A stretch of DNA of 64,000 bases, from assembly GCA_965248265.1 (NCBI GenBank), contig CBDFJF010000002.1, positions 1,312,001 through 1,376,000 of the forward strand, in the 5' to 3' direction. Shown piece after piece: positions 5,127 to 37,119 of this stretch. Source of the stretch: Candidatus Latescibacterota bacterium (GTDB taxonomy: Bacteria; Latescibacterota; UBA2968; UBA8231). Position 1 is the first letter of the stretch, and every line of letters begins with the position of its first letter. Made by a program: the position numbers and the translations under genes. Below the pieces are notes generated by a model. That model worked only from the letters and a program-made list of their open reading frames with translations, ran no database searches and was not told the origin of the DNA.

Positions 5127-8100
5127 TCAGGTTTTGGCCTCGGCTTGCTTCCCCGCCAGAAGTTCCTCGCCCTGCACCCGGTAGCCGGCCTTGATCTCGG
5201 GATCCACGGTGCGCCAGATGAGGAACTGCTTGCGGATGACATTGATGAAGCGCTGGTTGACCCTGCGCCACGACGAGTCCTCGCCGCTGAGGCGACGGAT
5301 CTGGAGTGTTATGACGTAAATGTTGTGCTCCGCTTCCGGCACGGCCCGGAAGACTACGTGCTGGCTGACGCCCAGATCGAAAGGCGCCAACCCAATCGTC
5401 ATCGCGATGCTGTATCCCTCACCGTGCTCGGTCTCCACCTTGTCCAAACTGGCCCCTTCGGTGTAGAACGTACCGACCGACTCCTCGCTGTAGGAGTCGA
5501 AGTAGCCTATCAGGAACACCGACAATCCGAGCACCTCGTGGCCGCTCACGGTGAAGGGGAACTCGAAGTTCCATTGGTCGCCCTCGGACGGCGGCAACCG
5601 CCACTTGCGGGTGACGTCGGGCACCGCCATCTGCGAGGCCTTGTGAGCGGGGTACACCGTGGACAACATTACCACCGCCATCACCAGCATGCTGGAGAAC
5701 ACGGCAGACAGCGACGAATAGTTCAGAGTGAATCCGGCCAACAGATCGAACACCATCAGGAGCTTGGCCACGGTTTGGCCCGTCAGGTACCCCGCCACCA
5801 CGCCGAGCACGGAGTAGACGCATGACTCGGCCATGAACAGCCAGGAGATGTGGCCGGGTGCGAGTCCCACCGACGAATAGATGCCGATCTCGCGGAAGCG
5901 TTCGTACACGCTGCCCATCATTGTGTTGAGCACGATGAGCGCGGCGATGAGGATGGGGATGAACAGGTTGGCCAGGCCCGAGAACCCCGTCACCCCCAGC
6001 GAGCTGTAGACCGACACCCCGACGCGATCGTCACCCTCTTCTTTGATGCCGGCGAATAGGGTCACCGCCAGGCGTGAAAGCAGTTCCTCGATGTGCGCCC
6101 GTTCGTCCACCCCCTCGTCAAAGCGCACGGCCACGGACTGCAGCGGATTGCCGCTGCCGACGTTGCGCAGCAGGTGGTATGGCATGACGAGGACGTTGGC
6201 TGGTGCCAAATGCACGAACGGATCAACGGTGGCCTTGGTTTCCGTGAGGCCGTCTCTGGCGCGCTTCTCCTCCTCCGCCATTTCGAGCACGGTCAGGCCG
6301 CTGGTGCCGGCGAAATCCGCCGGTGTGATCATTTCGTCGTCCAGGTCTTTGAGGTCCTCCAAGAGCTTGGAGTTGAGTACGCCGATCACCGTGAACATCT
6401 CGCCGAAAACGCGGATACGCTCCTTGCCCGCCTTCACTCGGTCCAGGTCGATGTTCAGCTTGTCTGCTGCGATCATCTGGTCGGGCAGGATGCAGACGTC
6501 CCCGTCGCCGGCCTCGAACCACCGTCCTGCGATCAGCGCCCGGTCCAACCCGGTGACCTCAGTTTCTTGAGGCGTCAGGCCGAGTACGCCAAGAGCGTAA
6601 TGCGAATTCTCGCCGTGCTTCATTTTGATGTGTGACCTGGCCTTGTCGCCGTACCAGCTGCGCGGGGCGACGGTGCCGATGTCGCGGAAGGTGTTGTTGG
6701 CATACTCCAGGACCGACTCCTCCTGCGGGCTCCACGCCTTGCTGCGTATCAGCATGCCCTGATAGAGGCCCTCGTTGCCGCGGTGAAACTGGTAGAACGA
6801 CAGCGAGGTCTGGAAGGAGGTGAACGAGAGCACGGTGAAGGTCAGCAGCATCAGGGTGGCGAACGTCAATGCCGTGCGCAGCTTGCGCCGCTTCATGTTG
6901 GAGATGCCCAGCTGGAAGGCCGCCAGCGAGGCGCCGGAACGTTTTACATCCGTATGGTGGATAACAGCGACCTCGGTCCGCAGCTGTCTCATGCTCTCGT
7001 TGAAGCGACCGCTCACGATCACCATGACCAACACCGCCATCGTCCCCATGATAAAGGCCAACAGGATGCCGAAGGGATTGGAGATCTCGAACGCCGGGTG
7101 GACCATGGAGAGGATGACCCATATGGCCAAGAAGACGCCCACGAAGCCGAAGATCTGGTTCTTGATCGTGGCCGCCGTGATCAGCAAGCGCTCGGCGAAA
7201 AACGCGCACGGAATGAGCAGCGCCAGGAAGAAGACGATGCCTTGAATCACGTCATTCTGGGTGGCCTTGACGTCCGGATAGGCGCGTGATTCCAGGCCGA
7301 TGGCCGCGCGTGCGCGACGCACAGACTCGCTCCAGCGACGCTCCTTTATCGCCTCTTCGGCGGCCTCCAACTGCTCGCGCGTTCGCGTGTGCAGGGTGCT
7401 GAGACGGCGGTTCTCGATGCCGTAACGGCTGAGCTCACGCATCCGCGCCTCGTTCAGCGTCCACATGTCGCGCGCCGCCAGGTAGGTGGTGTGGCCGAAC
7501 GAGCTGCCCGGGGTAATCTTGTACCCCTGACCGAGCGCCAGCTCGGGGTCGTCAGAGACCGCTGAGTTGAGGAGCAGATAGCGGAAGCCAAGGAGCCCTG
7601 CGCCCAACCCCAGCTTGATGCGCGTCCCGTCGGAGGCGAACAGCACGCCCAGCGGCTCGTTATCGGCTGACGGCCCCTCTCCGATCGTGTAGCCGTATTC
7701 CGAGGGCGCGGTATTGGTCTCGGCAAGCACGTTGAACTCGGACAGCTTGTTCAGGTACCGCGGATCGACCAGATCGTACAGGTTGTAGGCGCGGCATGGG
7801 AACAAGACCACCTGCCAGCTTTTGTCGCGCCAATCCATCGTGATCTTCATGGGGTAGGCGCCCCCCTTCTGGCCGCGGTCCGGGGCATAGTTAATGGATC
7901 CCGTCGCGGGATCCATGTCGTAAGCCTCGATCCCAACGTTGTTGACGCGTATGCGGTTGAAATACATGGCGCCGTCGCCGTCGACGATCTCGTAGTACTC
8001 GCCGCGCACGCCCTTGTACGACTTCTTCTGGCCGTTGCGAACAATCCCCACCGCCCCCTTTCTGGGCAGGTCGGGCACGATGTCGCGTTGCGGGAAGCCC

Positions 8101-9914
8101 ATGGCCCGTACCGTCAGCGACGACAGCGTATCCCGCAGCCGCATTTTGAAATCCGGGAACAGGCGCGGATCCTCTAAGGCGATGTGGAAGATACCGGCCA
8201 GGGCACGAACCTGCCTTGCCAGATTGTCGACGTGGACCTCGTCGAGGCGGTCGAACGGGGTGTCGACGACGAAGCGGGCATCGTTGACGGTGACCAGGGC
8301 CAGTGCCGGGGTGCCCGTGGTCAGCACGACCTCGCTGTTGACGGAGATCTCGCCTGGAACGAAGGAGTCCCAACTCATCCCCCCGGGGGGGCTGATGCCG
8401 TTGATGAGCACATCTTCGTGGTTGTACCCGAGGGCGCTGCTCACTTCGCGCGCGTAGCCCATGAACCTCTTGCCGAACGGCGCGAAATAGCGCTGGAAGT
8501 AGAACTGCGAGTTGCTGTTCCACAGACCCATCTCGTCTGTCTGAGTCGACAGGTCTAGGCTGACGAACAGTTTGATCGAGAGTGAGTCGACCTTGGGGTC
8601 TACCCACTCCTTGAAGAGGGCGAGGCGCAGATCTTCGTTGCCCATCAGCTCTTGGGCCAGGTCTTCTTCACTGGCGAATCGGCGGTCGTCGTAGGCGAGT
8701 TGTCCGCCAGACCGCAAGACCAGACCCTCCTCGATCGAAGCCTGGGTGACCCGGCGGATCAGGGTCGAGTCCGTTTCGGCAGTGCGCACCAGCGCCTCCT
8801 TGCCGAGGAACTCCTCGTCACTGAGGTGATACCGGACGCCGTCCTGCTCGATCATATTTCGTGTCAGTGCTGCTTCGACGACCCTTCGGATCACCATGCG
8901 ATCGACGAACGGGTCCTCCCGGCGCAGGTAGCGCTGAATGAAATCGTCGACCCCACGCAGGCCAAGATGATGTGCCGAGGTAGCCAGGAAGACTACGGTG
9001 CGGGCAGGGGGATTGTTCCGGAAATAGTGCGCCAGCTCGATCAGCGCCGTGATGCCGGCTGCCTGCTCGGCGCCGGGTGCCAGCGCGGGCACGACGGACA
9101 TGGCGTCATAGTAGGATTCCAGGACGATGACATCGTCCCTGAGCACCGGGTCGGTACCGGGGATGGTCCCGAGGATGTTCCAGGCCGGACGCCGCTTCCA
9201 CTCCATGCGGTACTTCATCTGCACCCCGATCTCGCCCGCCGGGCTCGCGGCGATACGCTGCCGCAGGCGAATCCCGTCCTCTTTGGGAACCCACCAGCGC
9301 GACAGGTCCAGCGGCATCGTCAGGAACTTGCGCTCACCCTCCAGGCAGACTGTAGAATCCGGTTCGATAAAGACCACGCCGCTGGAGCCCAGGTAGCCGC
9401 TGTTGAGCCAGGCGTCGCCGGTGTTGTAGTCCATGAGCACCATCGCCCCCTCGACCTGCTTGCCGTCCAGGTGGGTGTAGGAGCCGTCTCCGGCGTCGAT
9501 CAGGCGTGTGGCGATTCCTCCCTCGGGCAAGGTGGAGGTCTTGACCAGGTTTGGCCACAGTCCGTGCAGCTGTGCCGTCTCGCCCGTCGAGGCGACCCGG
9601 ATGCTGCCCGCTGTCTTCTCCACCGGTATGGACACGTCGTATTCGTGAACCGTGATCCCGATCAGTCCGATTTCGCGGAAGGTATCCTCAATGTAGCGGG
9701 CAGCCGCATCGGCCCCGGGATACCCGACCACTCGAGATTCGTGCGCGGTGAAACGTGCCAGCGTCGCCGCCATGCGCTCCTCCGATATCTGGTCCTTAAC
9801 CGCGGCCAGGTCTACCTCGGCGCCAACCGTCGGTGCCACCAGCAGCAGGACAGCGCACACCCACGGCATCAGATCGCGGCGGGGCGTGTCCGAGATATCA
9901 GATCCAGAAAGCAT
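5127..9914 (-). CDS. M28-peptidase-like domain fused to MacB/FtsX-type permease (1595 aa)
   Basis: N-terminal signal peptide and PA/M28-like region (NILGTIPG...ESYYD...PGAEQAAGITALIELA...TVVFLATSAHHLGLRG). C-terminal TM bundle with SNMKRRKLRTALT and FtsX motif ERFREIGIYSSVGLAP...FMAES. Confidence 0.8.
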   Translation of the reverse strand: MLSGSDISDTPRRDLMPWVCAVLLLVAPTVGAEVDLAAVKDQISEERMAATLARFTAHESRVVGYPGADAAARYIEDTFREIGLIGITVHEYDVSIPVEKTAGSIRVASTGETAQLHGLWPNLVKTSTLPEGGIATRLIDAGDGSYTHLDGKQVEGAMVLMDYNTGDAWLNSGYLGSSGVVFIEPDSTVCLEGERKFLTMPLDLSRWWVPKEDGIRLRQRIAASPAGEIGVQMKYRMEWKRRPAWNILGTIPGTDPVLRDDVIVLESYYDAMSVVPALAPGAEQAAGITALIELAHYFRNNPPARTVVFLATSAHHLGLRGVDDFIQRYLRREDPFVDRMVIRRVVEAALTRNMIEQDGVRYHLSDEEFLGKEALVRTAETDSTLIRRVTQASIEEGLVLRSGGQLAYDDRRFASEEDLAQELMGNEDLRLALFKEWVDPKVDSLSIKLFVSLDLSTQTDEMGLWNSNSQFYFQRYFAPFGKRFMGYAREVSSALGYNHEDVLINGISPPGGMSWDSFVPGEISVNSEVVLTTGTPALALVTVNDARFVVDTPFDRLDEVHVDNLARQVRALAGIFHIALEDPRLFPDFKMRLRDTLSSLTVRAMGFPQRDIVPDLPRKGAVGIVRNGQKKSYKGVRGEYYEIVDGDGAMYFNRIRVNNVGIEAYDMDPATGSINYAPDRGQKGGAYPMKITMDWRDKSWQVVLFPCRAYNLYDLVDPRYLNKLSEFNVLAETNTAPSEYGYTIGEGPSADNEPLGVLFASDGTRIKLGLGAGLLGFRYLLLNSAVSDDPELALGQGYKITPGSSFGHTTYLAARDMWTLNEARMRELSRYGIENRRLSTLHTRTREQLEAAEEAIKERRWSESVRRARAAIGLESRAYPDVKATQNDVIQGIVFFLALLIPCAFFAERLLITAATIKNQIFGFVGVFLAIWVILSMVHPAFEISNPFGILLAFIMGTMAVLVMVIVSGRFNESMRQLRTEVAVIHHTDVKRSGASLAAFQLGISNMKRRKLRTALTFATLMLLTFTVLSFTSFQTSLSFYQFHRGNEGLYQGMLIRSKAWSPQEESVLEYANNTFRDIGTVAPRSWYGDKARSHIKMKHGENSHYALGVLGLTPQETEVTGLDRALIAGRWFEAGDGDVCILPDQMIAADKLNIDLDRVKAGKERIRVFGEMFTVIGVLNSKLLEDLKDLDDEMITPADFAGTSGLTVLEMAEEEKRARDGLTETKATVDPFVHLAPANVLVMPYHLLRNVGSGNPLQSVAVRFDEGVDERAHIEELLSRLAVTLFAGIKEEGDDRVGVSVYSSLGVTGFSGLANLFIPILIAALIVLNTMMGSVYERFREIGIYSSVGLAPGHISWLFMAESCVYSVLGVVAGYLTGQTVAKLLMVFDLLAGFTLNYSSLSAVFSSMLVMAVVMLSTVYPAHKASQMAVPDVTRKWRLPPSEGDQWNFEFPFTVSGHEVLGLSVFLIGYFDSYSEESVGTFYTEGASLDKVETEHGEGYSIAMTIGLAPFDLGVSQHVVFRAVPEAEHNIYVITLQIRRLSGEDSSWRRVNQRFINVIRKQFLIWRTVDPEIKAGYRVQGEELLAGKQAEAKT

Positions 9915-10199: not shown

Positions 10200-10613
10200 A
10201 TGGCGCGGCATCGACCGAAAGTGAGCTTCATCTCAGAAGAAACGGTCGACCTGACGCCCTTGATCGACTGCGTTTTCATGTTGTTGATCTTCTTCATGGT
10301 CACCACCGTCTTCATCCATGCACGAGGACTGGATGTGGACTTGCCCAGAGCCTCTCAGGCCACTGAGCAGCAGGAGAAGAAGGACATCAACATCATCATC
10401 GAGCGGGACGGTCGCATCGAGATCGGTGGTGAGGCGGTACTCGCTGGAGAGTTGCGCGCCCGCATTGAGCGCGCGATGGTGGAAAATCGAAACGACAACG
10501 TGATCATTCAGGGAGACCGGGGAGCTGCTCAGTCGCGGGTGGTCGAGGTCGTGGACGCAGCGAAGGGGGCTGGGGTAAAGGGAATCGCCTTTGCCAAGCT
10601 ACAAGGATCGTGA
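10200..10613 (+). CDS. exbD: Biopolymer transport protein ExbD/TolR
   Basis: DLTPLIDCVFMLLIFFMVTTVF with conserved TM Asp; C-terminal VIIQGDR...VVEVVDAAKGAGV. Confidence 0.93.
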   Translation: MARHRPKVSFISEETVDLTPLIDCVFMLLIFFMVTTVFIHARGLDVDLPRASQATEQQEKKDINIIIERDGRIEIGGEAVLAGELRARIERAMVENRNDNVIIQGDRGAAQSRVVEVVDAAKGAGVKGIAFAKLQGS

Positions 10614-10658: not shown

Positions 10659-11072
10659 ATGGCACGGATACAGCGCAGGAGCCTTGTTGGGTCGGTGGAG
10701 ATGGAGTTGACGCCGTTGATCGACTGCGTGTTCCTGCTGTTGATCTTTTTCATGGTGACGACGGTTTTCAAGCAACCCTACCGGTTGAAGGTGTTGCTGC
10801 CCTTGGCGATAGAGGCCGTCATCATCGAGGAAAAGAAACTGGTGGCCACGATCGACCGGGGCGGGACCATGGAGGTGAACCGTTTCCCGGTGACGCCCGA
10901 AAGTTTGGAGGGCGTGTTGACTCGGGAGAAGGAGGGGGTGCGGGTGGTGACGTTGATCATTCGCACGGACAAGGATACGGGTCATGGACTGGTCCTTGAC
11001 ATGATGGAGACGGCGAAGCGGATCGGGATAGAGAAGATCGTGCTCGCTACTGAGAAGAAGGAGGCAGGATAG
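10659..11072 (+). CDS. exbD: Biopolymer transport protein ExbD/TolR (second copy)
   Basis: ELTPLIDCVFLLLIFFMVTTVF; LIIRTDK...VLDMMETAKRIGIEKI. Confidence 0.93.
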   Translation: MARIQRRSLVGSVEMELTPLIDCVFLLLIFFMVTTVFKQPYRLKVLLPLAIEAVIIEEKKLVATIDRGGTMEVNRFPVTPESLEGVLTREKEGVRVVTLIIRTDKDTGHGLVLDMMETAKRIGIEKIVLATEKKEAG

Positions 11073-11248: not shown

Positions 11249-11782
11249 GTGCTTGGATTTCGAGGTGGTTTTTTACTACTTTGTGGCGGATTGGCCCTTC
11301 TCACTTGTTCCAAAGAGGAAGGCCCACAAAAAGACGAAGGCGCAAAACTCGCTGCCCTCAAGGCGGCGAAGGTACAAGGTCAGACCTATCTGGATGTTCA
11401 CTTCGTGCTCGGCAGCAGCTTGGAAGAATTGGTCGCGCGCTTCGGTGAACCCGACGCCTATCGCCCGCAGCTGGGGAACCAGCCGTATGGGAATATCAAA
11501 TGGAAGGATCTGAAAGGGGTGACGGTTTTCGGCATCGTCAAGGACAGTACATGCGCTTACGTGAACTACAAGTTCGACAAGCTGGACCCTTTCGACGAGA
11601 CGGAGGCGTTCAGGATTATTGGGGTCGAACGACCTGACGACGATCCGGCGGTATCGGTACTCAAAACCGGGGTCACGAAGTGGTATCCGTTCGAGCACTA
11701 CCATCACCTGACGGTCAGTCCGCAGCAAAAGAATGTCAGTATCAAAGGTTTTGAGTTTGCGATGGGGCCTGGAACGTCGTAG
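11249..11782 (+). CDS. Hypothetical lipoprotein
   Basis: Hydrophobic N-terminus ending LLTC-SKEE; co-oriented with neighbours. Confidence 0.65.
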   Translation: MLGFRGGFLLLCGGLALLTCSKEEGPQKDEGAKLAALKAAKVQGQTYLDVHFVLGSSLEELVARFGEPDAYRPQLGNQPYGNIKWKDLKGVTVFGIVKDSTCAYVNYKFDKLDPFDETEAFRIIGVERPDDDPAVSVLKTGVTKWYPFEHYHHLTVSPQQKNVSIKGFEFAMGPGTS

Positions 11783-11963
11783 GGCGTCCAGGCGGAACAC
11801 TATTATCCTAATTGCTAAGGCAGAATCAACCTGAAACAGCGGAAATCAACCCGAAACGAGCAGAAAGGAGGAGACTCGACCGCGGTGCTGATTGTGTCTA
11901 ATTGTGTGGGATGAAGGAAGCGAGTTGTTGTCAGCGATAAAAGAACCCAAGGAGCATGAGAAG

Positions 11964-29752: not shown

Positions 29753-30304
29753 GTGAAACACGTTATTTGCGTTGTGTTGTGTGCGGCGTTTGTCTGTGGG
29801 ACGGCGTGGGAGGTGAGAGGCCAGGAAGAGATGTTTGCCGAAGAGGTCCGGGTGTCGCGGAATAGGGCGGTGATGCTGTCCGTGCTCTTTCCCGGTCTGG
29901 GACAGATGGCCTCGGGGCAAAAGCAAAAGGGTGGCGCGCTCTTTTTGAGCGGGCTGGTTTCACTGATCGTGGCGGTAGACGCACACGAGTCATACAACAC
30001 GCGTCGGGATGTGTACGCGTCATCCCGGAGCGAGTATGACGCCCTGCGTGTGGAGGGCACTCACCAGGAGGCGGAGGTCAAGTGGCAACGTGTGGTGGAT
30101 CTGAACGATGACCTGGACAACCTGCACAGTCGCCGGCAGATCTTCGGATACGCGGCGGTCGCGATCTATGCCTTGAATGTGGTAGATATCCTGTTGCGGC
30201 ATCCGGGAGATGCGACCGCTGGGCAAGAGATTGACCGCCAGCTTCTGGTGTCAGCAGGTCCCGTAGGTGGCACGACGGGGATCGTGGTATCGAAGAGCTT
30301 CTGA
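29753..30304 (+). CDS. DUF5683-like membrane/exported protein
   Basis: GTG after GGAG; AVMLSVLFPGLGQ motif, YALNVVD, C-terminal F. Confidence 0.6.
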   Translation: MKHVICVVLCAAFVCGTAWEVRGQEEMFAEEVRVSRNRAVMLSVLFPGLGQMASGQKQKGGALFLSGLVSLIVAVDAHESYNTRRDVYASSRSEYDALRVEGTHQEAEVKWQRVVDLNDDLDNLHSRRQIFGYAAVAIYALNVVDILLRHPGDATAGQEIDRQLLVSAGPVGGTTGIVVSKSF

Positions 30305-30793: not shown

Positions 30794-31948
30794 TTGAGGT
30801 TGGATCGGCTGCTAGCCGAGAACCGTCGGCTGGTCCAAGCGGGCCTGGTCATCGCCCTGTTGGCACACGCAGGGCTTTTCACCTACCTGGTGATCTCCAA
30901 GTCGGTTATCAAGGAAGCTCAACCGCCCAGCCTCGAGTTTGTGATGCGGACCCCGAGGCTCACCAAACCATTCGAGTTGAAGAAGAAACGGGTTCAACGC
31001 AAGATGACGCGAAGGAAAGTCGAGACGAACGTGGTTCCCGACATCGCCATCACCGAGCGCATCAATCGTCCGGATGTATTCGGGACGGTGACGACGTTCA
31101 ACTACGCCATCGAAAGCGGGGCGAGTGTGGGTGGTCAAGCTGTCGTCCCGGAGATCACGGCTTTCGCGCGCCTGGCCAGCACCAAGGATCCCGAGAAGCG
31201 TCTCAGCATGCAGGAAGAGTTTCTCGATCTGGAGGCATTGGACACAGGAAAATACAAGGGACTCGTAATCCAGAGTCCGACCAACAAGCAGGACATCCAG
31301 GGGTTCATTTATCTGGCGTTGGCAGTGGGAGAGGAGCTGGATCCGCCGACGCCTCGGGCGATCCCGCAACTGGCCAGGGCCGTCAACAAGTACACCATGA
31401 TCAATGCCAAAGTGGAAGATCGCCTGCAACTGGATTCGCGGGATCTTTTCAAGGCACCTTTCGTGTACATCACGGCGAACAAGGGATTCAACCTCACCAC
31501 CCAGGAGGCCCGCAATCTGGGGGAATACATGAGGATGGGGGGGTTCGTGTTCGCGGAGAACGGCGTCCCAGGTCTGGAGTACGGCCCGGCTGAAGCCTCG
31601 TTGCGGAAGATGTTAAAGGATGTGCTCGGGAAGGATTATCGGCCCCAAATGCTCCCGTACGAGCACCCCATCCATCACAGCTTTTTTGACTTCAACGATG
31701 GACCGCCACCCGGTGGAGAGGTCACAGGCGCCACGGGGGGCGTTACGATTCCTTCGCCGCATCTGGAGGGGATCTTCCTGGAAGGACGGCTGGTAGCGGT
31801 GTATTCGGACAAGGCGTACGGGAAGATCTGGCAGAGAGAGTTTGAGAATGAACCACAGTTGAAGATGGGGTTGAACCTGGTCGTATTCGCCCTGACGCAA
31901 CAGGGCTCGATCGCGCAGCAGCAGATCGATTTCTACAGCCAGCAATGA
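30794..31948 (+). CDS. DUF4159 domain protein with TonB-like N-terminal anchor
   Basis: Single TM with His (IALLAHAGLF) then a basic linker; DUF4159-type PFVYIT...EARNLGEYMRMGGFVFAE...HPIHHSFFDF...LEGI...GRLVAVYS...MGLNLVVFAL. Confidence 0.75.
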   Translation: MRLDRLLAENRRLVQAGLVIALLAHAGLFTYLVISKSVIKEAQPPSLEFVMRTPRLTKPFELKKKRVQRKMTRRKVETNVVPDIAITERINRPDVFGTVTTFNYAIESGASVGGQAVVPEITAFARLASTKDPEKRLSMQEEFLDLEALDTGKYKGLVIQSPTNKQDIQGFIYLALAVGEELDPPTPRAIPQLARAVNKYTMINAKVEDRLQLDSRDLFKAPFVYITANKGFNLTTQEARNLGEYMRMGGFVFAENGVPGLEYGPAEASLRKMLKDVLGKDYRPQMLPYEHPIHHSFFDFNDGPPPGGEVTGATGGVTIPSPHLEGIFLEGRLVAVYSDKAYGKIWQREFENEPQLKMGLNLVVFALTQQGSIAQQQIDFYSQQ

Positions 31949-33702
31949 TGAAAAACGGACTTCCACCGATCGCCCTGCCGGACGGGACCGCGTTCCAGCT
32001 CTGGCGGGATGAGACCATCTACGGATTTGTCTACTACGTGGATCAGCAGCACCCTGCGGCAGCCGACGACAATGCGGGCACCGAAGAGGCGCCCTTTCTG
32101 ACGATTCAGGCCGCCGCCGAACTCGTCGAGCCGGGCGAGAAGATATTGATCAAGTCGGGTGTCTACCGCGAGCTGGTCCAGCCCCGACGCGGCGGCAGCG
32201 GCGCTGATTCGATGATCAGCTATGAGGCGGCGCCGGGTGCCGAGGCCGTCATCCGTGGGTCCCAGGTGATCGACGCCACGTGGACGCATACGGGTGTGGC
32301 TCGATCGCTGAGCGTGTGGACGGCGGATCTGCCTGAGAGCTTCTTCGCCGGGGATCATCCGTTCGCCGTCGCCAACACCACCAACGCGGACTTCGAACTC
32401 ATGCACTGGGCGGAGGGGGAGCGCGGGCGGGCCCCGCACACACTGCCCCGGGCCATGGTTTTCCAGAACGGTCGCCGCCTGACCCAGTTGGGGACGCACG
32501 ACGAGCTGCCCCGGGTCCCCGGCACATTCTGGATCGACGCCGAGAGCAAGACGTTGCTCGTGCATCCGTTCGAGCGCCAGAATCCCAACACCTGTGAAAT
32601 CGAGGCCACGACCCGGCAATTTCTGTTCAACCCTCTGATCAAGGGGTTGGGGTACGTACGATTGGCCGGGTTGACTCTCGAGCAGGCCGGCAACGGCTTC
32701 ATCCGCTCTGGAAACGGCGCCGTGACGAGTTGGGGTGGGCATCACTGGATCATCGAGGACAACACCGTCCGTCACATCAATTCCGTGGGTGTCGAACTCG
32801 GCGGATTTACCGATGAGCGCTCAGAAGATGAAAACCGCAACGAGTTGGAAAAGACGACGGGCGGTCATCTGGTACGACGCAATCACATCTACGACTGCGG
32901 CACCGGCGGCATCCAGGGAACGGTCGTCCCGCGAACTCTGGTGGCCGACAACCACATCCACGACTGCGGTTGGCAGGAAGTCGAACGCTACTGGGAGACG
33001 GCAGGCATCAAGATCCTCATCCTCACCGATACCGTAGTCCAGTGCAATCACATCCACCACTGTCACGCAGCTCCCGGAATCTGGATCGACTTCGCCAACG
33101 TGAATTCCCGGGTGACGCGAAACCTGCTCCACGACATCGCCTCGACCACCGGGGGCATCTTCTTCGAAGCATCGAATGTCGTCAACATGATTGACCACAA
33201 TGTCATCTACAACGTGGAGGCGGGCAGCGGCGTCTATCAGCAGGACTGTGACCAGCTCCTGATCGCCCACAATCTGGTACTGAATTGCGACCATGCCGGG
33301 GTCCACATGCGGAAGTGTCCAACCCGCGACCGCGTGGGCGTATGCAAAGACAACCGTATCATCAACAACGTCATCGTTGGATGCCCGAAGGGATTCGAAT
33401 ACGTGGTGATGGACAATGTCTCGGACTACAACGTGCTCGCCGGTATGAGAGAGGACTTCAGCCTCGACGACTGGCAGTCCAGCGGTCTGGATGCCCATAG
33501 CCGCATGGTAGAGCTCGACATGGTGATCGACGCCGAGGATCAAAGCCTAGCCTGGTCGTCATCGGCCGCTACGGTGAGGGTGAGCCGTGACGAGCTGATG
33601 AGTCTCGACTACTTCGGTCGTCCGTATCCCGAAGAGGAGGTCCCGGTGGGGCCTTTCACCGAAGGTTGGGGCCCGGGGGGGCGCCGACTGCGACTTCGGT
33701 AG
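31945..33702 (+). CDS. Right-handed parallel beta-helix protein (DUF1565/pectin-lyase fold)
   Basis: YYVD...GTEEAPFLTIQAAA...PGE.I.IKSGVYRE; repeated N.I.DC/GIWID turns. Confidence 0.85.
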   Translation: MMKNGLPPIALPDGTAFQLWRDETIYGFVYYVDQQHPAAADDNAGTEEAPFLTIQAAAELVEPGEKILIKSGVYRELVQPRRGGSGADSMISYEAAPGAEAVIRGSQVIDATWTHTGVARSLSVWTADLPESFFAGDHPFAVANTTNADFELMHWAEGERGRAPHTLPRAMVFQNGRRLTQLGTHDELPRVPGTFWIDAESKTLLVHPFERQNPNTCEIEATTRQFLFNPLIKGLGYVRLAGLTLEQAGNGFIRSGNGAVTSWGGHHWIIEDNTVRHINSVGVELGGFTDERSEDENRNELEKTTGGHLVRRNHIYDCGTGGIQGTVVPRTLVADNHIHDCGWQEVERYWETAGIKILILTDTVVQCNHIHHCHAAPGIWIDFANVNSRVTRNLLHDIASTTGGIFFEASNVVNMIDHNVIYNVEAGSGVYQQDCDQLLIAHNLVLNCDHAGVHMRKCPTRDRVGVCKDNRIINNVIVGCPKGFEYVVMDNVSDYNVLAGMREDFSLDDWQSSGLDAHSRMVELDMVIDAEDQSLAWSSSAATVRVSRDELMSLDYFGRPYPEEEVPVGPFTEGWGPGGRRLRLR

Positions 33703-33726: not shown

Positions 33727-34998
33727 GTGATGGCAACGAGTCGATTGTTGCGGGAGCTTGAACTGATGCTACACAGCCGTGTCCTGCGTTACGGAATGTT
33801 GATGGTCCCGATCTTCCTGGCTGCGTGCCTGTCGGTGCCGCGAGTCGAGTACCGCTCGGTCCTCGAGCCAAAGGAGTCGGAGCGAGAGCAGCATTCCATA
33901 GGGGATGACGGAATAGTCTCCTACCATCTGGAGGGCTCCCGGATTGAGGTGCAGTACATGACCGAGCCGGTGCTGAACGAGATGTTTCCCGACGATTCGA
34001 AAGGAGAAGAGCTTTCGACCAATCCCTACACCTACGGGGATTGGGTGGACCCGAACGTGGGGTACATACCGAATCGATTCACCGTGTTCAACATCGCGGT
34101 GTACAATTACACCTACGCCAAGATGCAGCTGGATCCACTGAAGGTCATCCTGTTGACTGACCGTGGAGGCTATCTGGAATCGTACACGATTGCCCCGGTG
34201 GCTGATCGCAAGAGCCTGGAGGGGTACTTCCGGGGCTTGCGCGGCATCAGCGGGAACGAGCACTATCGCTTTTCGAAACGGATCGGGATCGTGCGATCTA
34301 GCGCCTACGGAGAAGATGAGGTGATTTTCAAAGGGGAGAACTACAGCGGGCTTCTCGTGTTCGATCCCCTCCATCCCAAGGTGCGCAACGTGCGTGTGAT
34401 TCTCAAGGATTTCGCGCTCAAGTTCGACGCGTCGGGGCACCCAATCGAGACCATAGACATTCCCTTTGATTTCAACCGCACAGTCAGCAAGCAAGTAATC
34501 GCGGAGGACAGGGAAGCGGAACAAGGGCCCAGGGAGACGACGCGGGTGGTTATCCGGGGCCCGCGCCAGATCCGCGGCAACCAGCAGGGAGATCTCGCCC
34601 GGAACACCGGCGCGATCAATTCGATAGTCGACCGCAATCTCACTGATCTGCGGCGATGTTTTTCCGAGTCGTTTGACCAGGGAGATGCCGTCGAGGGCGT
34701 GGTGGAGGTTCAGTTCACGATTCGCGTGCACGGCGTGGTCGAAGCTGTGAGCGTGACAGAGTCCACGGTCATGAATGCGCAGGTGGGCGCCTGCATCGTG
34801 GCCGAAATGAAGCGCTGGCAGTTCCAACCCGCCGGACAGTATGCACAGCAGGCCAGGCCGTCTCAACAGAGCACATCGCAGGTTGGCGAGCCAGGATCGG
34901 CTGAATCGCGTCAGGACGAACTCTCAAGACCTCAGAGACGTCCCCCGGTGACCGATGTGATGGTGGTGTACCCGTTCACTTTTGAGGAGATAGAGTAA
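33727..34998 (+). CDS. Lipoprotein with C-terminal TonB-C/AgmX-PglI-like domain (start uncertain)
   Basis: FLAAC lipobox; LRRCF...EGVVEVQFTI..HGVV..VSV.EST...VGACI...MKRWQF.P...VVYPFTF. Confidence 0.7.
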   Translation: MMATSRLLRELELMLHSRVLRYGMLMVPIFLAACLSVPRVEYRSVLEPKESEREQHSIGDDGIVSYHLEGSRIEVQYMTEPVLNEMFPDDSKGEELSTNPYTYGDWVDPNVGYIPNRFTVFNIAVYNYTYAKMQLDPLKVILLTDRGGYLESYTIAPVADRKSLEGYFRGLRGISGNEHYRFSKRIGIVRSSAYGEDEVIFKGENYSGLLVFDPLHPKVRNVRVILKDFALKFDASGHPIETIDIPFDFNRTVSKQVIAEDREAEQGPRETTRVVIRGPRQIRGNQQGDLARNTGAINSIVDRNLTDLRRCFSESFDQGDAVEGVVEVQFTIRVHGVVEAVSVTESTVMNAQVGACIVAEMKRWQFQPAGQYAQQARPSQQSTSQVGEPGSAESRQDELSRPQRRPPVTDVMVVYPFTFEEIE

Positions 34999-35160: not shown

Positions 35161-37119
35161 TTGATAGAGAAACCGTCGGCGTCAGGCGTGACGCTGCGTT
35201 CGCTCGTCATCGGCGCGGCACTCAGCCTGGCGATCGGCGTGGGCGAGCCCTACGGTGCGTTCGTCATCATGGGCAGCCGGATGAGCGGATTGAACGGGCC
35301 CGCCGCCTTCTTCCTGTTCTTCCTGTGGGTGGGGGTTGTCCAGGTGGTGTTGGCGCTCATCCACCGGAGGCTGGTTCTGGGCAAGGGCGAGTTGCTGACC
35401 ATCTACATCATGATGGTCGTAGCCACGGCGTTCTCGGGGGGCGAGCGCAACGGCTTCTGCTTGATGCTCTTGGGGTCCACGGCGGGTTTGTTCTACCTGG
35501 CGACGCCCGAAAACGAGTGGGCAGACAGCATCCACCCCTACGTGGCAGACTGGATGGTCCCTCAGGACGAGCTCGGGATCAGCTGGTTTTTCGAGGGGAT
35601 GCCGGAGGGCGAGTCCATTCCCTGGGACATGTGGTTGTCCCCCCTGCTCTGGTGGTTCCTGTTCATGGTGGCGCTGTGGATGTTCTGCATCTGCGCCATG
35701 GTCATCCTGCGCCGCCAGTGGGTGGAGTACGAGCACTTGATCTATCCGATCACGAAAGTGCCCCTCGCCATGGTCGATGCGCCGTCGGACAGTTCTCTGG
35801 TAGCCCCGTTCTTCAAGAAGCCGTTGATGTGGATGGGACTGCTTATGGCATTCGGCCGCGAGAGCCTCAATGCCCTGCACCATTATTTCCCCTTCGTCCC
35901 CGTGATTCCGAGAAATCTTGGGCAACTGACCCTGATACAGCGATTCGCCAATGTAGGGTTCTCGGTGAATCTGATGATCCTGGGGTTTGCCTACTTCCTC
36001 AAGGCGGACGTCATGTTCGGGATGTGGGTGTTTTATATCCTGCGGCGCCTGGAGGAGGGCGTGTTGACGATGACCGGGCTTGGGATCGGGGAAGCACTCT
36101 CCAACTACGGCGGCGGTGGGGGTGTGAGAGGATTGCTGGCCCATCAGAGCATCGGTGCCATGATAGCGATGGTCCTCTTCGGACTGTGGATTGCCCGGGG
36201 GCATCTGCGGACGGTGTTCCGCAAAGCGCTCACAGGGGACGCGTCCGTCGACGATTCCGATGAAATCATGTCCTACCGCACCGCCGTTTGGGGGGTCATC
36301 CTCGGGTTTATCGGGATGAGCCTGTGGCTCTGGCGTGCGGGACTGCCCCTGTGGGCAGGGCTGCTGTTTCTATTCGGTGCGCTGGTGACCTTCGTCAGCC
36401 TGACCCGCATCATCGCCGAGGCGGGATTGCCGATGGTGTTTCCCCGCAACATCCCCCTGGATTTCGTGGTCTCTGGAATAGGGGTCCGCTACATAGGACC
36501 GACGGGGATGGCGGCCCTGGGTCCTACGGTAGTATGGACGGAATCCCTGGCCAGTACGATGATGGCACACACGGCCACCGGGTTGAAATTGACCGCTGAG
36601 ATTGTCCATAGAAAGCGCTGGCTCCTGCTGGCCCTGGTCGTCGCTATCGTGGTCTCTTCAGTCAGCACGTTCTGGACGTCGCTGTCGATAGCCTATCGCG
36701 AGGGCGGCATCAATGTCGCGCGTTCCGTCGGTTACCTGCCTGATTTCACCTGGCAGTATGTGGCAAGCCGGGTCGATGAGAACGCGGGACCGAACGGGTT
36801 GGGTTGGCTCATCCGATGCATCGGGGCCGCGGTGATGACGGGCCTGCTGTTCATGCAGCGCCGGTTCTTGTGGTGGCCCCTACACCCGCTGGGGTTTGTC
36901 GTCAGCATGGACCGGGTAATGGACACAGCTTGGTTTCCGGTTTTTCTGGCCTGGTTGATCAAAACGTACATGTTGAAGTATGGCGGCCCGAAGGCCTATC
37001 AGTCGCTCATCCCGGTCTTCTACGGGTTGATCCTAGGCCAGTTCGTGGCCGGAGGCTTCTGGCTGATCGTAGATTACCTCACCGGCATGATAGGTAACGG
37101 ATTGGGCATGATGTACTAA
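35161..37119 (+). CDS. DUF6785/DUF6784-type polytopic membrane protein (putative transporter)
   Basis: GVTLRSLVIG, ELLTIYIMM, LRRQWVEYEHLIYPI, RIIAEAG, WWPLHPLGF, LKYGG, GLILG; many TM helices. Confidence 0.75.
   Translation: MIEKPSASGVTLRSLVIGAALSLAIGVGEPYGAFVIMGSRMSGLNGPAAFFLFFLWVGVVQVVLALIHRRLVLGKGELLTIYIMMVVATAFSGGERNGFCLMLLGSTAGLFYLATPENEWADSIHPYVADWMVPQDELGISWFFEGMPEGESIPWDMWLSPLLWWFLFMVALWMFCICAMVILRRQWVEYEHLIYPITKVPLAMVDAPSDSSLVAPFFKKPLMWMGLLMAFGRESLNALHHYFPFVPVIPRNLGQLTLIQRFANVGFSVNLMILGFAYFLKADVMFGMWVFYILRRLEEGVLTMTGLGIGEALSNYGGGGGVRGLLAHQSIGAMIAMVLFGLWIARGHLRTVFRKALTGDASVDDSDEIMSYRTAVWGVILGFIGMSLWLWRAGLPLWAGLLFLFGALVTFVSLTRIIAEAGLPMVFPRNIPLDFVVSGIGVRYIGPTGMAALGPTVVWTESLASTMMAHTATGLKLTAEIVHRKRWLLLALVVAIVVSSVSTFWTSLSIAYREGGINVARSVGYLPDFTWQYVASRVDENAGPNGLGWLIRCIGAAVMTGLLFMQRRFLWWPLHPLGFVVSMDRVMDTAWFPVFLAWLIKTYMLKYGGPKAYQSLIPVFYGLILGQFVAGGFWLIVDYLTGMIGNGLGMMY

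Follow-up and report, generated by a model that had tools for sequence, protein, structure and literature searches.

In other systems, GldLM moves SprB and Agl-Glt moves its adhesin. Type B cargo of the T9SS is anchored at the surface by binding to PorP-like proteins, and the complex of the two also contains PorE, a periplasmic partner associated with the outer membrane (PMC9143113, PMC12618676). The locus presented here, from a 64,000-nt stretch of DNA of a Latescibacterota bacterium (hereafter the window), encodes a conserved envelope machine of several components, which Latescibacterota share with neighbouring FCB candidate phyla. The machine is widely conserved and apparently undescribed, no published description having been found. 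Its hosts are uncultured Latescibacterota and members of related phyla, and no cultured organism was among the matches listed.

Layout of the locus

The ORFs and domains first described for the window were confirmed by Pfam and NCBIfam scans and by the translations, and the co-oriented run, previously counted as 15 genes, actually comprises 16-17 ORFs (Table 1). TonB_dep_Rec, Plug and SusD had no match at E <= 0.01 among the 20 window proteins scanned with Pfam, in agreement with the earlier note, which had reported neither a TonB-dependent receptor nor SusD. The same note had called the machine TonB/ExbD-energised. An ExbB/ExbD motor indeed belongs to it; however, ExbB is absent from the window and its orthologue (55-65% identity) is encoded on the opposite strand, ~28 kb upstream of ExbD1. 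The likely start of CTD687 is the ATG at 11964 and that of OMP1060 lies near 22232. The hairpin between the CTD genes, with a 14-bp stem including 10 G-C pairs and a T-rich tail, may act as an attenuator; it was found in a consensus-only scan, the total matches of which were not above those in shuffled sequences.

Table 1. Features of the locus, with positions in the window and the evidence for each
Feature	Position	Strand	Evidence
M28-like/MacB_PCD/FtsX fusion, divergently transcribed	5127-9914	-	Pfam
ExbD1	10200-10613	+	PF02472 E 5.5e-29, 101 bits
ExbD2	10659-11072	+	PF02472 E 2e-24, 86.5 bits
Small lipoprotein, 177 aa, LLTC lipobox	11249-11782	+	translation; no known family
CTD687, surface protein with type A T9SS sorting domain	11892-13955	+	TIGR04183, FlgD_ig
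Terminator-like hairpin	13994-14028	+	consensus scan; between both CTD genes
CTD693, F5/8 type C (discoidin) and type B-like T9SS tail	14092-16173	+	F5_F8_type_C, CHU_C
Giant barrel 1, OMP948 (annotated form 917 aa)	16186-19032	+	AF2 model, fold search
Giant barrel 2, OMP966	19085-21985	+	paralogy to barrel 1
Giant barrel 3, OMP1060	21995-25177	+	paralogy to barrel 1
PL22-like beta-propeller	25197-26477	+	PF14583
TPR scaffold protein, 1,082 aa	26491-29739	+	many TPR families
DUF5683 membrane protein	29660-30304	+	PF18935, 38.3 bits (cut-off 26.7)
Small fn3-like exported protein, 156 aa	30267-30737	+	weak fn3 match, E 0.0017
DUF4159 single-pass inner-membrane protein	30794-31948	+	PF13709 E 4e-31
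Right-handed beta-helix glycosidase-like protein	31945-33702	+	Beta_helix E 2.5e-16
TonB_C lipoprotein, Ig-like N-domain	33727-34998	+	NF033768, AF2 fold
DUF6785/DUF6784 polytopic membrane protein	35161-37119	+	PF20581 E 1e-118

Conserved core and variable neighbours

The genes are grouped far beyond chance. In the 76 related loci, the conserved core comprises the motor (ExbB-ExbD-ExbD), two kinds of lipoprotein (a small one, and an Ig-like one in which the TonB-C fold is present), two surface proteins with T9SS tails, between one and three giant barrels, a TPR protein of ~1,080 aa and a single-pass DUF4159 protein. CTD693 was encoded directly upstream of a barrel gene in 60 of these loci and the TPR protein directly downstream of barrels in 43, and DUF4159, the TonB-C lipoprotein and ExbB/D were present in 39, 28 and 24, respectively. 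A barrel gene was accompanied by at least one of TPR, DUF4159, TonB-C lipoprotein and ExbB/D in 53/76 loci (several barrels in 37, a single barrel in 16). The SusC/SusD-independent envelope machine proposed earlier is upheld. A compact form of the locus was found in two genomes of the same family (G055 and G060). Of the 61 genomes in the phylum sample, 36 had barrels and 34 had the lipoprotein; the latter was present in 34 of the 36 barrel-bearing genomes vs none of the 25 without barrels, and both followed the same pattern per family (f2 0/16, f3 0/3 and f7 0/5 for each).

The genome itself holds 18 barrel genes in 11 loci, nine of the 18 with a CTD693-like gene directly upstream, and the TPR/ExbD/DUF4159 set in only two loci, the second being a paralogous module on contig C1 with a TPR paralogue of 24% identity. 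Neighbours of the barrel loci vary and are often catabolic, counted without a random-gene baseline (sulfatases, DUF4838, DUF2961, GHL10 with CTD, and sugar-acid dehydratases). At the paralogous barrel loci of this genome, PMT_2/TPR glycosyltransferase-like proteins, SurA-like PPIases and FG-GAP proteins were commoner than classical CAZymes.

A sugar-acid/rhamnose catabolism island (rhaM, UxuA-like, MR_MLE and GH106) lies between the displaced ExbB gene and the window. This island, together with the short gaps at which the PL22-like, beta-helix and DUF6785 genes follow within the co-oriented run, would suit the coupling to uronate-type enzymes proposed earlier, i.e., a machine dedicated to pectin/uronate glycans and functionally linked with the two enzymes (PL22-like and beta-helix). 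Such a dedication is, however, very improbable. The PL22-like, beta-helix and M28/FtsX genes were each found in 0/76 related loci and are missing from the compact form in G055 and G060, and the PL22-like gene was present in only one of 12 other genomes of the family. The match of the PL22-like protein to PF14583 (37.4 bits) covers residues 1-120 only and that to Ogl 3c5m (E 1e-10) residues 1-116; the similarity behind the Ogl-like lyase of the earlier note is confined to the N-terminal third. The beta-helix protein, previously regarded as a uronate enzyme, is GH120-like, matching the xylosidase 3vst_A at E 3.5e-32, and has five full-length paralogues of ~70% identity and a broken copy on C1. 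Neither protein has a signal peptide. Both genes lie outside the core, as apparent lineage-specific insertions, and the M28/FtsX fusion, with four copies in the genome including that in the window, is not part of the machine. As a general property a uronate-specific PUL analogue is thus largely refuted (0/76 loci); it could hold for this lineage.

The DUF6785 gene was present in 8/76 related loci. All 13 genomes of family f9 had barrels and none of the 13 had DUF6785, while f2, f3 and f7 showed the reverse; the gene is phyletically independent of the barrels, a neighbour outside the core. In the genome studied, it lies within 10 kb of 8/11 barrel loci, as compared with a mean of 1.3 under random placement, and none of 2,000 trials reached 8. 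Its product is possibly an OPT-like permease. The nearest atlas clusters were 'peptide transporter'/OPT at 0.79, which is a lead only.

Motor, scaffold and giant barrels

ExbD1, the best score of which was to TolR, is a stator subunit of the motor, which is proton-driven, and ExbD2 is a second, divergent stator subunit with 38% identity to it (tblastn). The two were kept in 18 and 19 of the 76 related loci, in which ExbD1 orthologues adjoin ExbB and ExbD2. The DUF4159 gene also adjoins ExbB/ExbD in several related loci and occupies the position expected for TonB or TolA. Its aligned products start with a short tail, which is followed by a single transmembrane helix, the conserved motif PRLTKPFEF and the periplasmic DUF4159 domain. 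The periplasmic TPR protein carries an N-terminal signal or anchor sequence and CpoB/YbgF-like and BamD-like units (TIGR02795 E 3e-72, TIGR03302 E 8e-56). Orthologues of the small lipoprotein lie upstream of CTD genes in 19/76 loci, the DUF5683 gene follows TPR or barrel genes in 14/76, and orthologues of the fn3-like protein lie between DUF5683 and DUF4159 in 7/76. The TonB_C lipoprotein (AF2 pLDDT 84.6) has an invariant lipobox Cys in 22 aligned sequences, an Ig-like domain at residues ~40-258 and a TonB C-terminal fold at residues 288-423, which matched TonB CTD structures at Z 7.2-7.8 (rmsd 2.1-2.9) and NF033768 at 64.3 bits (cut-off 40). In the single-barrel versions, the lipoprotein is 244-312 aa in length and without the TonB-C domain.

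The three large proteins are paralogous and, based on modelling, giant SlpA-like outer-membrane beta-barrels. OMP966 and OMP1060 are 31% (E 8e-105) and 29% (E 6e-82) identical to OMP948, and the AF2 model of the latter (pLDDT 70.4) has ~30 strands; the earlier description of them as paralogous and barrel-like was thus supported. The best fold match was SlpA of Deinococcus (7zgx_A; Z 17.6, 421 residues aligned, rmsd 6.3), with other barrels at Z 11.9 or less, among them the SprA translocon (Foldseek E 4e-5, VIA Z 9.0). None of the three matched a Pfam or NCBIfam family, the score of OMP966 against SlpA_C being sub-threshold (19.8 bits, cut-off 35). They model neither as ordinary TonB-dependent receptors nor as soluble enzymes, and a new family of large outer-membrane proteins, as had been suspected, is supported. 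The family comprises 955 representative clusters at E <= 0.001. The three barrels bear two DxDxDG-type acidic loops, and neither a plug domain nor a TonB box was identified in them. OMP966 is the paralogue nearest the single barrel of the minimal versions; in single-barrel loci, most barrels that immediately precede the TPR gene matched it better than the other queries. OMP1060 has paralogues of 84% and 74% identity elsewhere in the genome, and OMP1060-like triplets occur in tandem in other genomes.

By analogy with Tol-Pal/CpoB or SlpA/OmpM, the motor, TPR protein and lipoproteins might fix the giant barrels to the cell wall or coordinate constriction and biogenesis of the outer membrane. The CpoB/YbgF-like and BamD-like units, the TolR score of ExbD1, the SurA-like PPIases adjoining paralogous barrels, and the fold match to SlpA, described as an S-layer/outer-membrane complex protein, point in this direction. 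However, an envelope-integrity or tethering system is unlikely. The machine was not found in 25/61 phylum genomes, among them entire families represented by complete genomes, and thus does not serve a housekeeping need; Pfam revealed no SLH, OmpA_C or other domain for binding to the wall in the barrels; and an expansion to 18 barrel genes with individual CTD partners would be odd for a tether.

Surface proteins and possible function

At 34 bits, CTD687 exceeded the TIGR04183 cut-off of 23, and it matched FlgD_ig at E 1e-12. Matches to it, full-length orthologues among them, were found in 37/76 related loci, and a paralogue of 49% identity adjoins DUF6785 and an OMP1060-like barrel at C2:2730325-2737598. 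CTD693 matched F5_F8_type_C at E 1e-10 and CHU_C at 26.7 bits, just under the cut-off of 27, which was exceeded by its homologues in KSB1 and Zixibacteria loci and by its paralogues in the same genome. The F5/8C lectin-type domain is retained from Latescibacterota to KSB1 and Zixibacteria.

SprA was found in 56/61 genomes of the phylum vs GldN in 0/61, the GldN search being without a positive control. Together with the SprA match of the barrels and the PMT_2/TPR glycosyltransferase-like proteins adjoining their paralogues, this might indicate outward transport of a polymer (polysaccharide or coat material), or of the CTD proteins themselves, to the surface, as in a Nfs/Glt-related spore-coat system or an auxiliary T9SS branch. 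This is rather improbable, however: 24/61 genomes (f2, f3 and f7) carry SprA and lack both barrels and lipoprotein, which means that the T9SS does not depend on the machine, and the conserved core includes neither a polymerase nor a flippase.

The synteny check advised earlier gave a mixed result. By the criteria of the note, a conserved core with varying catabolic neighbours favours import; however, both CTD cargo proteins are also part of the core, and in KSB1 a PorP/SprF gene (35.8 bits, cut-off 22.3) separates the type B cargo gene from the giant barrel gene, after which come TPR, ExbB and ExbD, and this favours secretion or attachment. An apparatus for anchoring, adhesion or motility of T9SS cargo is a close rival, possible at best, and the same grade applies to its details, i.e., that barrels would dock CTD proteins, replacing or extending PorP/SprF, and that motor, TPR protein and TonB-C lipoprotein would load, hold or move the cargo. 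PorP/SprF was not found in this genome or in Latescibacterota G073, while the same search was positive in KSB1 and Zhuqueibacterota genomes. The CTD genes directly upstream of barrels, both CTD partners as conserved structural parts of the locus, and the binding of type B cargo to PorP-like proteins in the papers cited above would also fit. The C-domain of the lipoprotein scored above the cut-off for the myxobacterial AgmX/PglI domain. AglR/AglQ/AglS are mirrored by one ExbB and two ExbD. On the other hand, KSB1 has PorP/SprF in addition to a giant barrel, so simple substitution of the former by the latter does not apply, and ~30 strands are far more than an anchor requires. Equivalog scores for GltG and GltJ were far under the cut-offs (41 vs 650 bits and 17 vs 450 bits), and searches for further Glt or Gld components revealed no homologues, the negative ones for GldL, GldM and GldN being without a positive control.

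The reading that we tentatively favour is that large glycans are taken up, with an input of energy, through barrels capped by lectins. The barrels would be gated channels, and their T9SS-delivered partners on the outer face would catch large glycans or glycoconjugates. The motor would act via the DUF4159 protein, TPR scaffold and TonB-C lipoprotein, its energy would cause opening or release, and the substrate would reach the periplasm. The PL22-like, xylosidase-like and DUF6785 genes would be local insertions, which may exploit the operon without defining it. A channel-like outer-membrane part is suggested by the giant-barrel model nearest SlpA; energy coupling by the two ExbD, the orthologous ExbB and the predicted TonB-C fold; and a link to glycans by the F5/8C domain, the catabolic neighbours and the proximity of DUF6785. 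However, the missing plug and TonB box, the phyletic uncoupling of DUF6785 and the conservation of the CTD partners seem to count against uptake, as do the relative paucity of classical CAZymes at the paralogous barrel loci and the TonB-C domain missing from single-barrel lipoproteins. The KSB1 PorP/SprF between cargo and barrel likewise fits anchoring and counts against uptake.

Energised uptake would resemble the logic of TonB with SusC/SusD, in which few motors serve many barrel-partner pairs; here, 18 barrel genes in 11 loci are found vs two motor modules. The resemblance does not extend to the binders: those of the SusD type are variable, whereas the main locus has, in different genomes, conserved orthologues of both its CTD partners.

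Organisation and conservation of the locus

All sizeable open reading frames between 10200 and 38221 lie on the forward strand, spaced by 9-176 bases or slightly overlapping, and the GC skew is positive throughout this interval. The domain assignments that an earlier note had read from the sequence were upheld by Pfam and NCBIfam: two ExbD proteins, a lipoprotein, two proteins with FlgD_ig/T9SS tails (CTD687 and CTD693), a PL22-like protein, a TPR protein of 1,082 aa, DUF5683 and DUF4159 proteins, a beta-helix protein, a lipoprotein with a TonB-C-like end (hereafter TonB-C lipoprotein) and a DUF6785/DUF6784 membrane protein. Signal peptides or lipoboxes, as judged by eye, were present in the lipoprotein, CTD687, CTD693, the three large barrel proteins (OMP948, OMP966 and OMP1060), the TPR protein and the TonB-C lipoprotein, and absent from the PL22-like and beta-helix proteins. 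Promoter and terminator scans gave total counts not clearly over those of shuffled sequences, with one hairpin as the sole standout.

Features of the window and number of related loci (of 76) with a tblastn match to the window protein
Feature	Position	Strand	Loci with match	Remark
M28-like/MacB_PCD/FtsX fusion	5127-9914	-	0	divergent gene; Pfam/NCBIfam
ExbD1	10200-10613	+	24	count for ExbB/D
ExbD2	10659-11072	+	24	count for ExbB/D
Small lipoprotein			19	
CTD687	11892-13955	+	37	
Hairpin	13994-14028			
CTD693	14092-16173	+	60	
OMP948	16186-19032	+		barrel 1
OMP966	19085-21985	+		barrel 2
OMP1060	21995-25177	+		barrel 3
PL22-like	25197-26477	+	0	
TPR protein	26491-29739	+	43	
DUF5683			14	
fn3-like			7	
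DUF4159	30794-31948	+	39	
Beta-helix	31945-33702	+	0	
TonB-C lipoprotein	33727-34998	+	28	
DUF6785	35161-37119	+	8	
orf314	37277-38221	+	0	exported 314-aa protein of no family, 3' of DUF6785
FG-GAP/ASPIC (UnbV) proteins (two) and spermine-synthase-like protein	41152-46416 and 46640-49516			
PhyH-family dioxygenases (four)	50835-54675			
LVIVD-repeat paralogues (two)	54682-60804	-		
IS-type integrase (rve)	57006-57920			between the LVIVD-repeat genes

A scan of species genomes gave at least 482 relatives of the barrels, from which 76 loci were retained with up to 10 kb on either side. They are mostly from Latescibacterota, the others being labelled Handelsmanbacteria, Gemmatimonadota (MAG labels), KSB1, Zixibacteria, Zhuqueibacterota, Zipacnadia and Cytophagia MAGs. 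The homologues proved not to be scattered, a point on which the earlier note had made its proposal depend: barrels and core genes stand together in 53 of the 76 loci, with multiple barrels in 37 and a single barrel in 16. In another eight a CTD gene and a barrel occur alone, many of these loci being truncated by contig ends, and 15 contain barrels alone, often as tandem OMP1060-like triplets. The common order in Latescibacterota is lipoprotein, CTD687, CTD693, barrels 1-2-3, TPR protein, (DUF5683, fn3), DUF4159 and TonB-C lipoprotein, with ExbB-ExbD1-ExbD2 at one end or divergently transcribed, and a compact form without insertions is found in two genomes of the same family. The minimal form of this machine (KSB1, Zixibacteria, Zhuqueibacterota) comprises a type B cargo protein, a protein of about 320 aa, one barrel, a TPR protein, ExbB, ExbD, one or two DUF4159 proteins and a short lipoprotein. 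The machine is flanked in KSB1 by a 1,920-aa T9SS cargo protein with PKD, lamin-tail and CarboxypepD_reg domains (L053:674-6436), and in Zixibacteria by a GHL10 glycosidase-like protein with a CTD (L073:17132-18997).

Of 61 sampled genomes of the phylum, 36 had the barrel family and 34 the lipoprotein family. Both occurred in genome families f1, f4-f6 and f8-f13, and both were missing from f2 (0/16), f3 (0/3) and f7 (0/5); the two genomes with barrels and without the lipoprotein are 89% and 64% complete. The barrel and lipoprotein families travel together, in a co-occurrence that amounts to a few gains or losses because related genomes are not independent. SprA was found in 56 of the 61 genomes, those of f2, f3 and f7 among them, and since these three families have SprA without the machine, the machine is accessory and not needed for type IX secretion. 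In G005, G014, G019, G021, G031 and G035 (two families; genera g15 and g21), every lipoprotein-family match has a single in-frame TAG, which could reflect adjacent genes, a broken gene or recoding.

The coupling to uronate-type enzymes that the earlier note had proposed was not borne out, as neither the PL22-like nor the beta-helix protein had a match in any of the 76 related loci. In the relatives barrel 3 is directly followed by the TPR gene, and the DUF4159 gene directly adjoins the lipoprotein gene; here the PL22-like gene lies in the first of these junctions and the beta-helix gene in the second. The PL22-like protein scores 37.4 bits against PF14583 (cut-off 30), yet only profile positions 1-123 of 386 are aligned; Ogl structures align with it over residues 1-119 only, and the gene is present in one of 12 other genomes of its family. 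The beta-helix protein, on its match to the xylosidase 3vst_A (E 3.5e-32, residues 197-427), which we take to belong to GH120, is probably not the uronate enzyme that had been supposed. There are five full-length paralogues of it, about 70% identical, and a broken copy on contig C1. Two of the full-length paralogues belong to an island for rhamnose and sugar-acid catabolism immediately before the window (C2:1288001-1312000; L096, L097), between a displaced ExbB gene and the window. The island also encodes a rhamnose mutarotase, an aldo-keto reductase, GFO/IDH, UxuA-like and Amidohydro_2 proteins, two enolase-superfamily dehydratases, a 1,290-aa GH106 rhamnosidase and epimerases, and seems to be what broke up the motor operon. 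Judged by sequence comparison, the PL22-like and beta-helix enzymes are not part of the machine, and these neighbouring "uronate" enzymes are unsuitable for annotating it.

DUF6785 is hugely expanded in the phylum, with at least 20 scored matches in many genomes; it occurs in f2, f3 and f7, which are without the machine, and in none of the 13 genomes of f9, which has it. In the genome studied here it lies within 10 kb of eight of the 11 barrel loci, against a random mean of 1.3, and none of 2,000 trials reached eight. The link between DUF6785 and the barrels is real locally and not obligatory, and a role as obligate inner-membrane partner is ruled out by the phyletic distribution despite the local enrichment. 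In an atlas search the closest clusters to DUF6785 were of the 'peptide transporter'/OPT kind (0.79), which serves as a lead only, and nothing useful came from solved-structure sequence searches with DUF6785, CTD687 and CTD693.

Several further features of the window have relatives elsewhere. The M28-like/MacB_PCD/FtsX fusion exists in four genomic copies, the window copy included; one paralogue (C2:2061373-2068120) is directly downstream of a DUF6785 gene and another 14 kb from one, which hints at a separate DUF6785-FtsX association. The orf314 protein has four paralogues in the same genome and is probably a small outer-membrane barrel. The two LVIVD-repeat paralogues (755 and 787 aa) carry FlgD_ig/T9SS tails, and PhyH genes recur next to barrel and DUF6785 loci elsewhere. 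FG-GAP/ASPIC proteins and proteins of the spermine-synthase-like kind (958 aa in the window, with C-terminal TPRs) also border barrel triplets in another genome (L088).

The giant barrels and their motor

The three large proteins are paralogues (identity 31%, E 8e-105, and 29%, E 6e-82). No Pfam or NCBIfam family was assigned to any of them, the only family signal being that of OMP966 against SlpA_C (PF21620) at 19.8 bits, below the cut-off of 35. The AlphaFold2 model of OMP948, built from a 27-sequence alignment (pLDDT 70.4, pTM 0.66), is a single very large beta-barrel of about 30 strand segments with an inserted mixed domain (about residues 221-379) and an acidic loop (about 540-634), within which residues 553-623 form an acidic segment modelled at low confidence. 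Asp, Asn and Gly of the acidic segment are invariant in the alignment, and the sequence contains two DxDxDG-type loops, presumably calcium sites. The best match among solved structures was Deinococcus SlpA (7zgx_A; Z 17.6, 421 residues aligned, rmsd 6.3), followed at Z of 11.9 or less by generic porins, BamA-like barrels and receptors; TonB-dependent receptor structures reached Z of about 9-11, well under SlpA. Foldseek also ranked SlpA entries first (E about 7e-9), then MtrB, LptD and SprA, with low TM-scores of about 0.2.

The earlier note had stated that no TonB-dependent receptor or SusD is present, and indeed no protein of the locus matched receptor, Plug or SusD models, while the rest of the genome gave 29 receptor-barrel matches and one weak SusD match. 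Plug (PF07715) was absent from all three large proteins at E of 0.01 or less, although the same Pfam library does detect it in a true receptor of this genome (the L007 protein). Neither was there a Pfam match to TonB_dep_Rec (PF00593), the predicted strands numbering about 30 vs 22, and no recognisable TonB box motif was identified in the barrels. On the basis of these fold searches and family scans, the large proteins are neither ordinary TonB-dependent receptors nor soluble enzymes, the two identities that would have spoken against the earlier proposal.

Among 1.84 billion representatives, the barrel family accounts for 955 clusters at E of 0.001 or less, 680 at 1e-10 and 321 at 1e-30. No cultured carrier was found among the 44 barrel matches listed, or among the best 120 of 339 matches of the DUF4159 protein, all being metagenomic or MAG-derived. 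As far as sequence and predicted fold can tell, the barrels constitute a new family of giant outer-membrane proteins, with no Pfam family for the members scanned.

ExbD1 and ExbD2 match PF02472 at 101.3 and 86.5 bits. The window contains no ExbB gene, nor does one lie in the 286-bp gap that precedes ExbD1, while ExbB adjoins the ExbD genes in 24 of the related loci. An orthologue with 55-65% identity to the locus-linked ExbB of relatives is situated at C2:1293246-1293968, on the opposite strand; the 28 kb that separate it from ExbD1 contain the sugar-acid island, a UPF0182 gene and the M28/FtsX gene. Four further ExbB-type matches exist in the genome, one of them within a second paralogous module on contig 1 (CTD1113, barrel and SurA-like PPIase and, further on, short lipoprotein, TPR, ExbB, ExbD and DUF4159).

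The usual position of TonB/TolA is occupied by the DUF4159 gene. In the alignment, DUF4159 proteins of this type begin with a short cytoplasmic tail and a single transmembrane helix (containing His in many, not all), followed by a conserved basic PRLTKPFEF motif and a periplasmic DUF4159 domain, so that the single-pass protein of the locus carries DUF4159 instead of TonB_C. The TonB-C fold is found on the lipoprotein, which has an invariant lipobox Cys instead of the TonB-type N-terminal transmembrane anchor followed by a proline-rich spacer. In its model (pLDDT 84.6) the N-domain is an Ig-like sandwich with weak structural matches (Z of 8.8 or less), for which an atlas search returned only unnamed Latescibacterota lipoproteins. 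Residues 288-423 match TonB C-terminal domains at Z 7.2-7.8 and rmsd 2.1-2.9 with whole chains covered, including FoxA-bound TonB (Z 7.8, rmsd 2.9, 90/90 residues) and the Neisseria, Helicobacter, E. coli and FusB domains. The lipoprotein scored 64.3 bits against the AgmX/PglI domain NF033768 (cut-off 40) and 17 bits against Pfam TonB_C, under the cut-off of 24.6, and in single-barrel versions of the machine it is without the TonB-C domain. Complex prediction with the N-terminal segments of the three barrels and the TonB-C domain of the lipoprotein gave a score of 0.00 (mark 0.32), which speaks neither way on binding.

Type IX cargo and possible functions

CTD687 ends in a type A sorting domain (TIGR04183, 34 bits, cut-off 23), whereas the CHU_C match of CTD693 is just under the cut-off (26.7 vs 27 bits), its homologues scoring 29-41 bits. 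CTD693 and many paralogues have such type B-like tails, mostly together with an F5/8C domain. The same genome contains SprA model matches of 297 and 277 bits in one 2,090-aa frame, a PorV-like match of 155.6 bits (under the cut-off of 250) and, by tblastn with CTD687, 67 further C-terminal tail matches. A CTD693-like gene is directly upstream of nine of the 18 barrel genes of this genome, a second CTD gene immediately precedes barrel 3 in L018-L022, and a partial copy of the locus (C2:2730325-2737598) encodes CTD687-like, DUF6785 and OMP1060-like proteins; cargo-barrel pairing is therefore a rule in the family.

According to excerpts of two papers, type B cargo binds a PorP-like partner for surface anchorage and the two are often genetically linked (PMC9143113, PMC12618676). 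In the KSB1 locus, the gene for the protein of about 320 aa, between cargo and barrel, encodes PorP/SprF (PF11751, hmmscan 35.8 bits, cut-off 22.3). The giant barrels did not match PF11751, and no match was found in the present genome or another Latescibacterota genome searched, although the identical search succeeds in KSB1 and Zhuqueibacterota genomes.

It could be supposed that the machine is the missing T9SS motor, which is weakened by the presence of SprA in f2, f3 and f7 with neither barrels nor lipoprotein. The GldN model found nothing in the 61 genomes of the phylum or in five of neighbouring phyla, and GldL and the fourth GldM domain were not found in the present genome; since these searches had no positive control, absence of Gld proteins is not established. 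A weak GldM match turned out to be a chemotaxis receptor. If the negatives are real, the T9SS of these phyla would be without a known GldKLMN-type motor and ring.

An 80-kb supercluster (C2:2106001-2186000; L092-L095) consists of a repeated gene set, namely a PMT_2+TPR membrane glycosyltransferase-like protein (650-730 aa), two unknowns, an F5/8C CTD protein of 1,100-1,260 aa and a giant barrel, with FG-GAP/ASPIC proteins, DUF6785 and a SurA-like PPIase. It may be that the CTD proteins, or else the barrels, carry glycans.

The analysis establishes the list of parts and its conservation, the folds of the barrel and the TonB-C domain, and the T9SS tails. In the proposed mechanism, the stator would drive the DUF4159 protein, which would transmit force, the TPR protein would span the periplasm as a bridge, the lipoprotein would touch the barrels, and the CTD proteins, exported via SprA, would dock onto the barrels. 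Import of large glycans is the reading that we favour, at somewhat less than even probability, because of the few motors and many barrel-partner pairs, the lectin-type domain of the partner, the TonB-C fold and the variable, often catabolic flanks. The flanks of some barrel loci contain sulfatases (three loci), DUF4838, DUF2961, BNR, GHL10 with a CTD and sugar-acid dehydratases, as raw occurrences without a background rate. As for a PUL-like character, such catabolic genes border some loci, and the enzymes of the window recur in none of the 76.

Serious points stand against import: no plug or TonB box was identified in the barrels, the partners of the barrels do not vary but are conserved, the KSB1 version includes PorP/SprF, and it is PMT_2/TPR glycosyltransferase-like proteins, SurA-like PPIases and FG-GAP proteins, not CAZymes, that abound in the paralogous loci of the same genome. 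Therefore, anchoring or movement of T9SS surface proteins is a close rival, which we consider possible and rather doubtful. A tethering role appears improbable, and outward transport more improbable still.

Combined with import, the parts could be read as a new class of proton-driven outer-membrane import machine, evolved independently of TonB-dependent receptors and built in part by the T9SS; this joint reading is offered tentatively and is on balance doubtful. Barrels of about 30 strands, probably as a hetero-trimer, would be capped by lectin-type, T9SS-delivered proteins, and an ExbB-ExbD1-ExbD2 stator would operate them via the DUF4159 protein, the TPR scaffold and the lipoprotein-borne TonB-C domain. 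If true, several uncultured FCB phyla would capture their nutrients by this system, and it would be the first instance of an import machine built in part by the T9SS.

Complex organic matter is degraded by Latescibacterota, KSB1, Zixibacteria and related groups, which are abundant and uncultured, and we know of no described route by which large substrates cross the outer membrane in these phyla. The locus joins three systems usually studied apart, i.e., ExbB/ExbD motors, TonB-C domains and type IX secretion. Barrels that import polymers would be an independently arisen alternative to SusC/SusD. A role in anchoring or moving T9SS cargo would make them a new means of surface display outside Bacteroidota, and under both readings DUF4159 and DUF5683 gain testable roles.

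Comparison with known systems

The full-text literature searched (subscription journals and supplements being outside its scope) contained nothing relevant on DUF6785 or on Latescibacterota/Latescibacteria with T9SS, and DUF4159 appeared only in the Pfam database article. With the TonB-ExbB-ExbD system and its TonB-dependent transporters, SusC/SusD of Bacteroidota among them, the machine shares an ExbB/ExbD-type stator, the TonB-C fold, large barrels with a surface-exposed partner, few motors for many pairs, and some loci near catabolic genes. However, its barrels are without Plug and TonB_dep_Rec and have about 30 strands rather than 22, and its partner is delivered by the T9SS and is not a SusD lipoprotein (no match to SusD/RagB, PF07980 and relatives, among 20 locus proteins). 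It further differs from TonB systems in the TonB-C fold on a lipoprotein, the DUF4159 protein in the TonB position and an obligatory TPR protein of 1,080 aa.

The Agl-Glt (Myxococcus gliding) and Nfs systems contain one TolQ/ExbB-like and two TolR/ExbD-like proteins, long TPR proteins and several outer-membrane barrels. The machine resembles them in having one ExbB and two ExbD, a long TPR protein, several barrels, a periplasmic TonB-C-like domain of the AgmX/PglI type, with NF033768 above cut-off, and surface protein output. The GltG/GltJ equivalogs scored far lower than required (NF033760, 41.4 bits, cut-off 650; NF033761, 17.3 bits, cut-off 450), the shared C-terminal domain alone matching. 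Further differences are that barrel size shows no relation to that of these systems, that the T9SS delivers the surface parts, and that no cytoplasmic platform parts were seen. Tol-Pal/CpoB is similar in its TolR-like ExbD, CpoB-like TPR units, TolA-III/TonB-C fold and trans-envelope logic, whereas the core of the machine is without TolB or Pal, is accessory and includes giant barrels and T9SS cargo.

Deinococcus radiodurans SlpA (7zgx, 8ae1, 8agd) is the best fold match of the barrel, with sub-threshold SlpA_C in one paralogue, and the three barrel genes could mirror the trimer of the SlpA entry title. Nevertheless, identity is about 10-11%, the genomic context is different, PF21620 is under cut-off, and the SLH domain and coiled coil of the SlpA N-terminus have no counterpart, with no SLH match and a model N-terminus that is short and of low confidence.

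T9SS type B systems with PorP-SprF/PorE, as described in excerpts (PMC9143113, PMC12618676), are similar in that a type B-like CTD gene adjoins the gene for an outer-membrane partner, in PorP/SprF of the KSB1 version, in a periplasmic partner for the outer-membrane complex and in SprA in the genome. In contrast to PorP/SprF of about 300 aa, the partner here is a barrel of about 900 aa of a new family, linked to a dedicated ExbB/ExbD motor, a DUF4159 protein and a TonB-C lipoprotein, and it occurs outside Bacteroidota. In Fibrobacter succinogenes, according to part of one report, FSU_2396-2403 encode OmpA, two TPR proteins, ExbB, two ExbD and a TonB-domain protein; they are up-regulated on cellulose, and a TPR protein is in an outer-membrane complex with surface enzymes (PMC6851124). 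This TPR-ExbB-ExbD-ExbD module of a T9SS-using FCB bacterium, likened by that partial description and not by sequence, may be the nearest experimentally studied look-alike, although the same portion reports no giant barrel or DUF4159 protein there (PMC6851124).

The machine thus fails the defining tests for TonB-dependent receptors, SusD, PorP/SprF, SlpA and GltG/GltJ. By analogy, it would work like a trans-envelope system of the TonB/Tol type that borrows the cargo handling of the T9SS. As an ExbB/ExbD-powered envelope machine it is known in kind, and its outer-membrane protein family is new.
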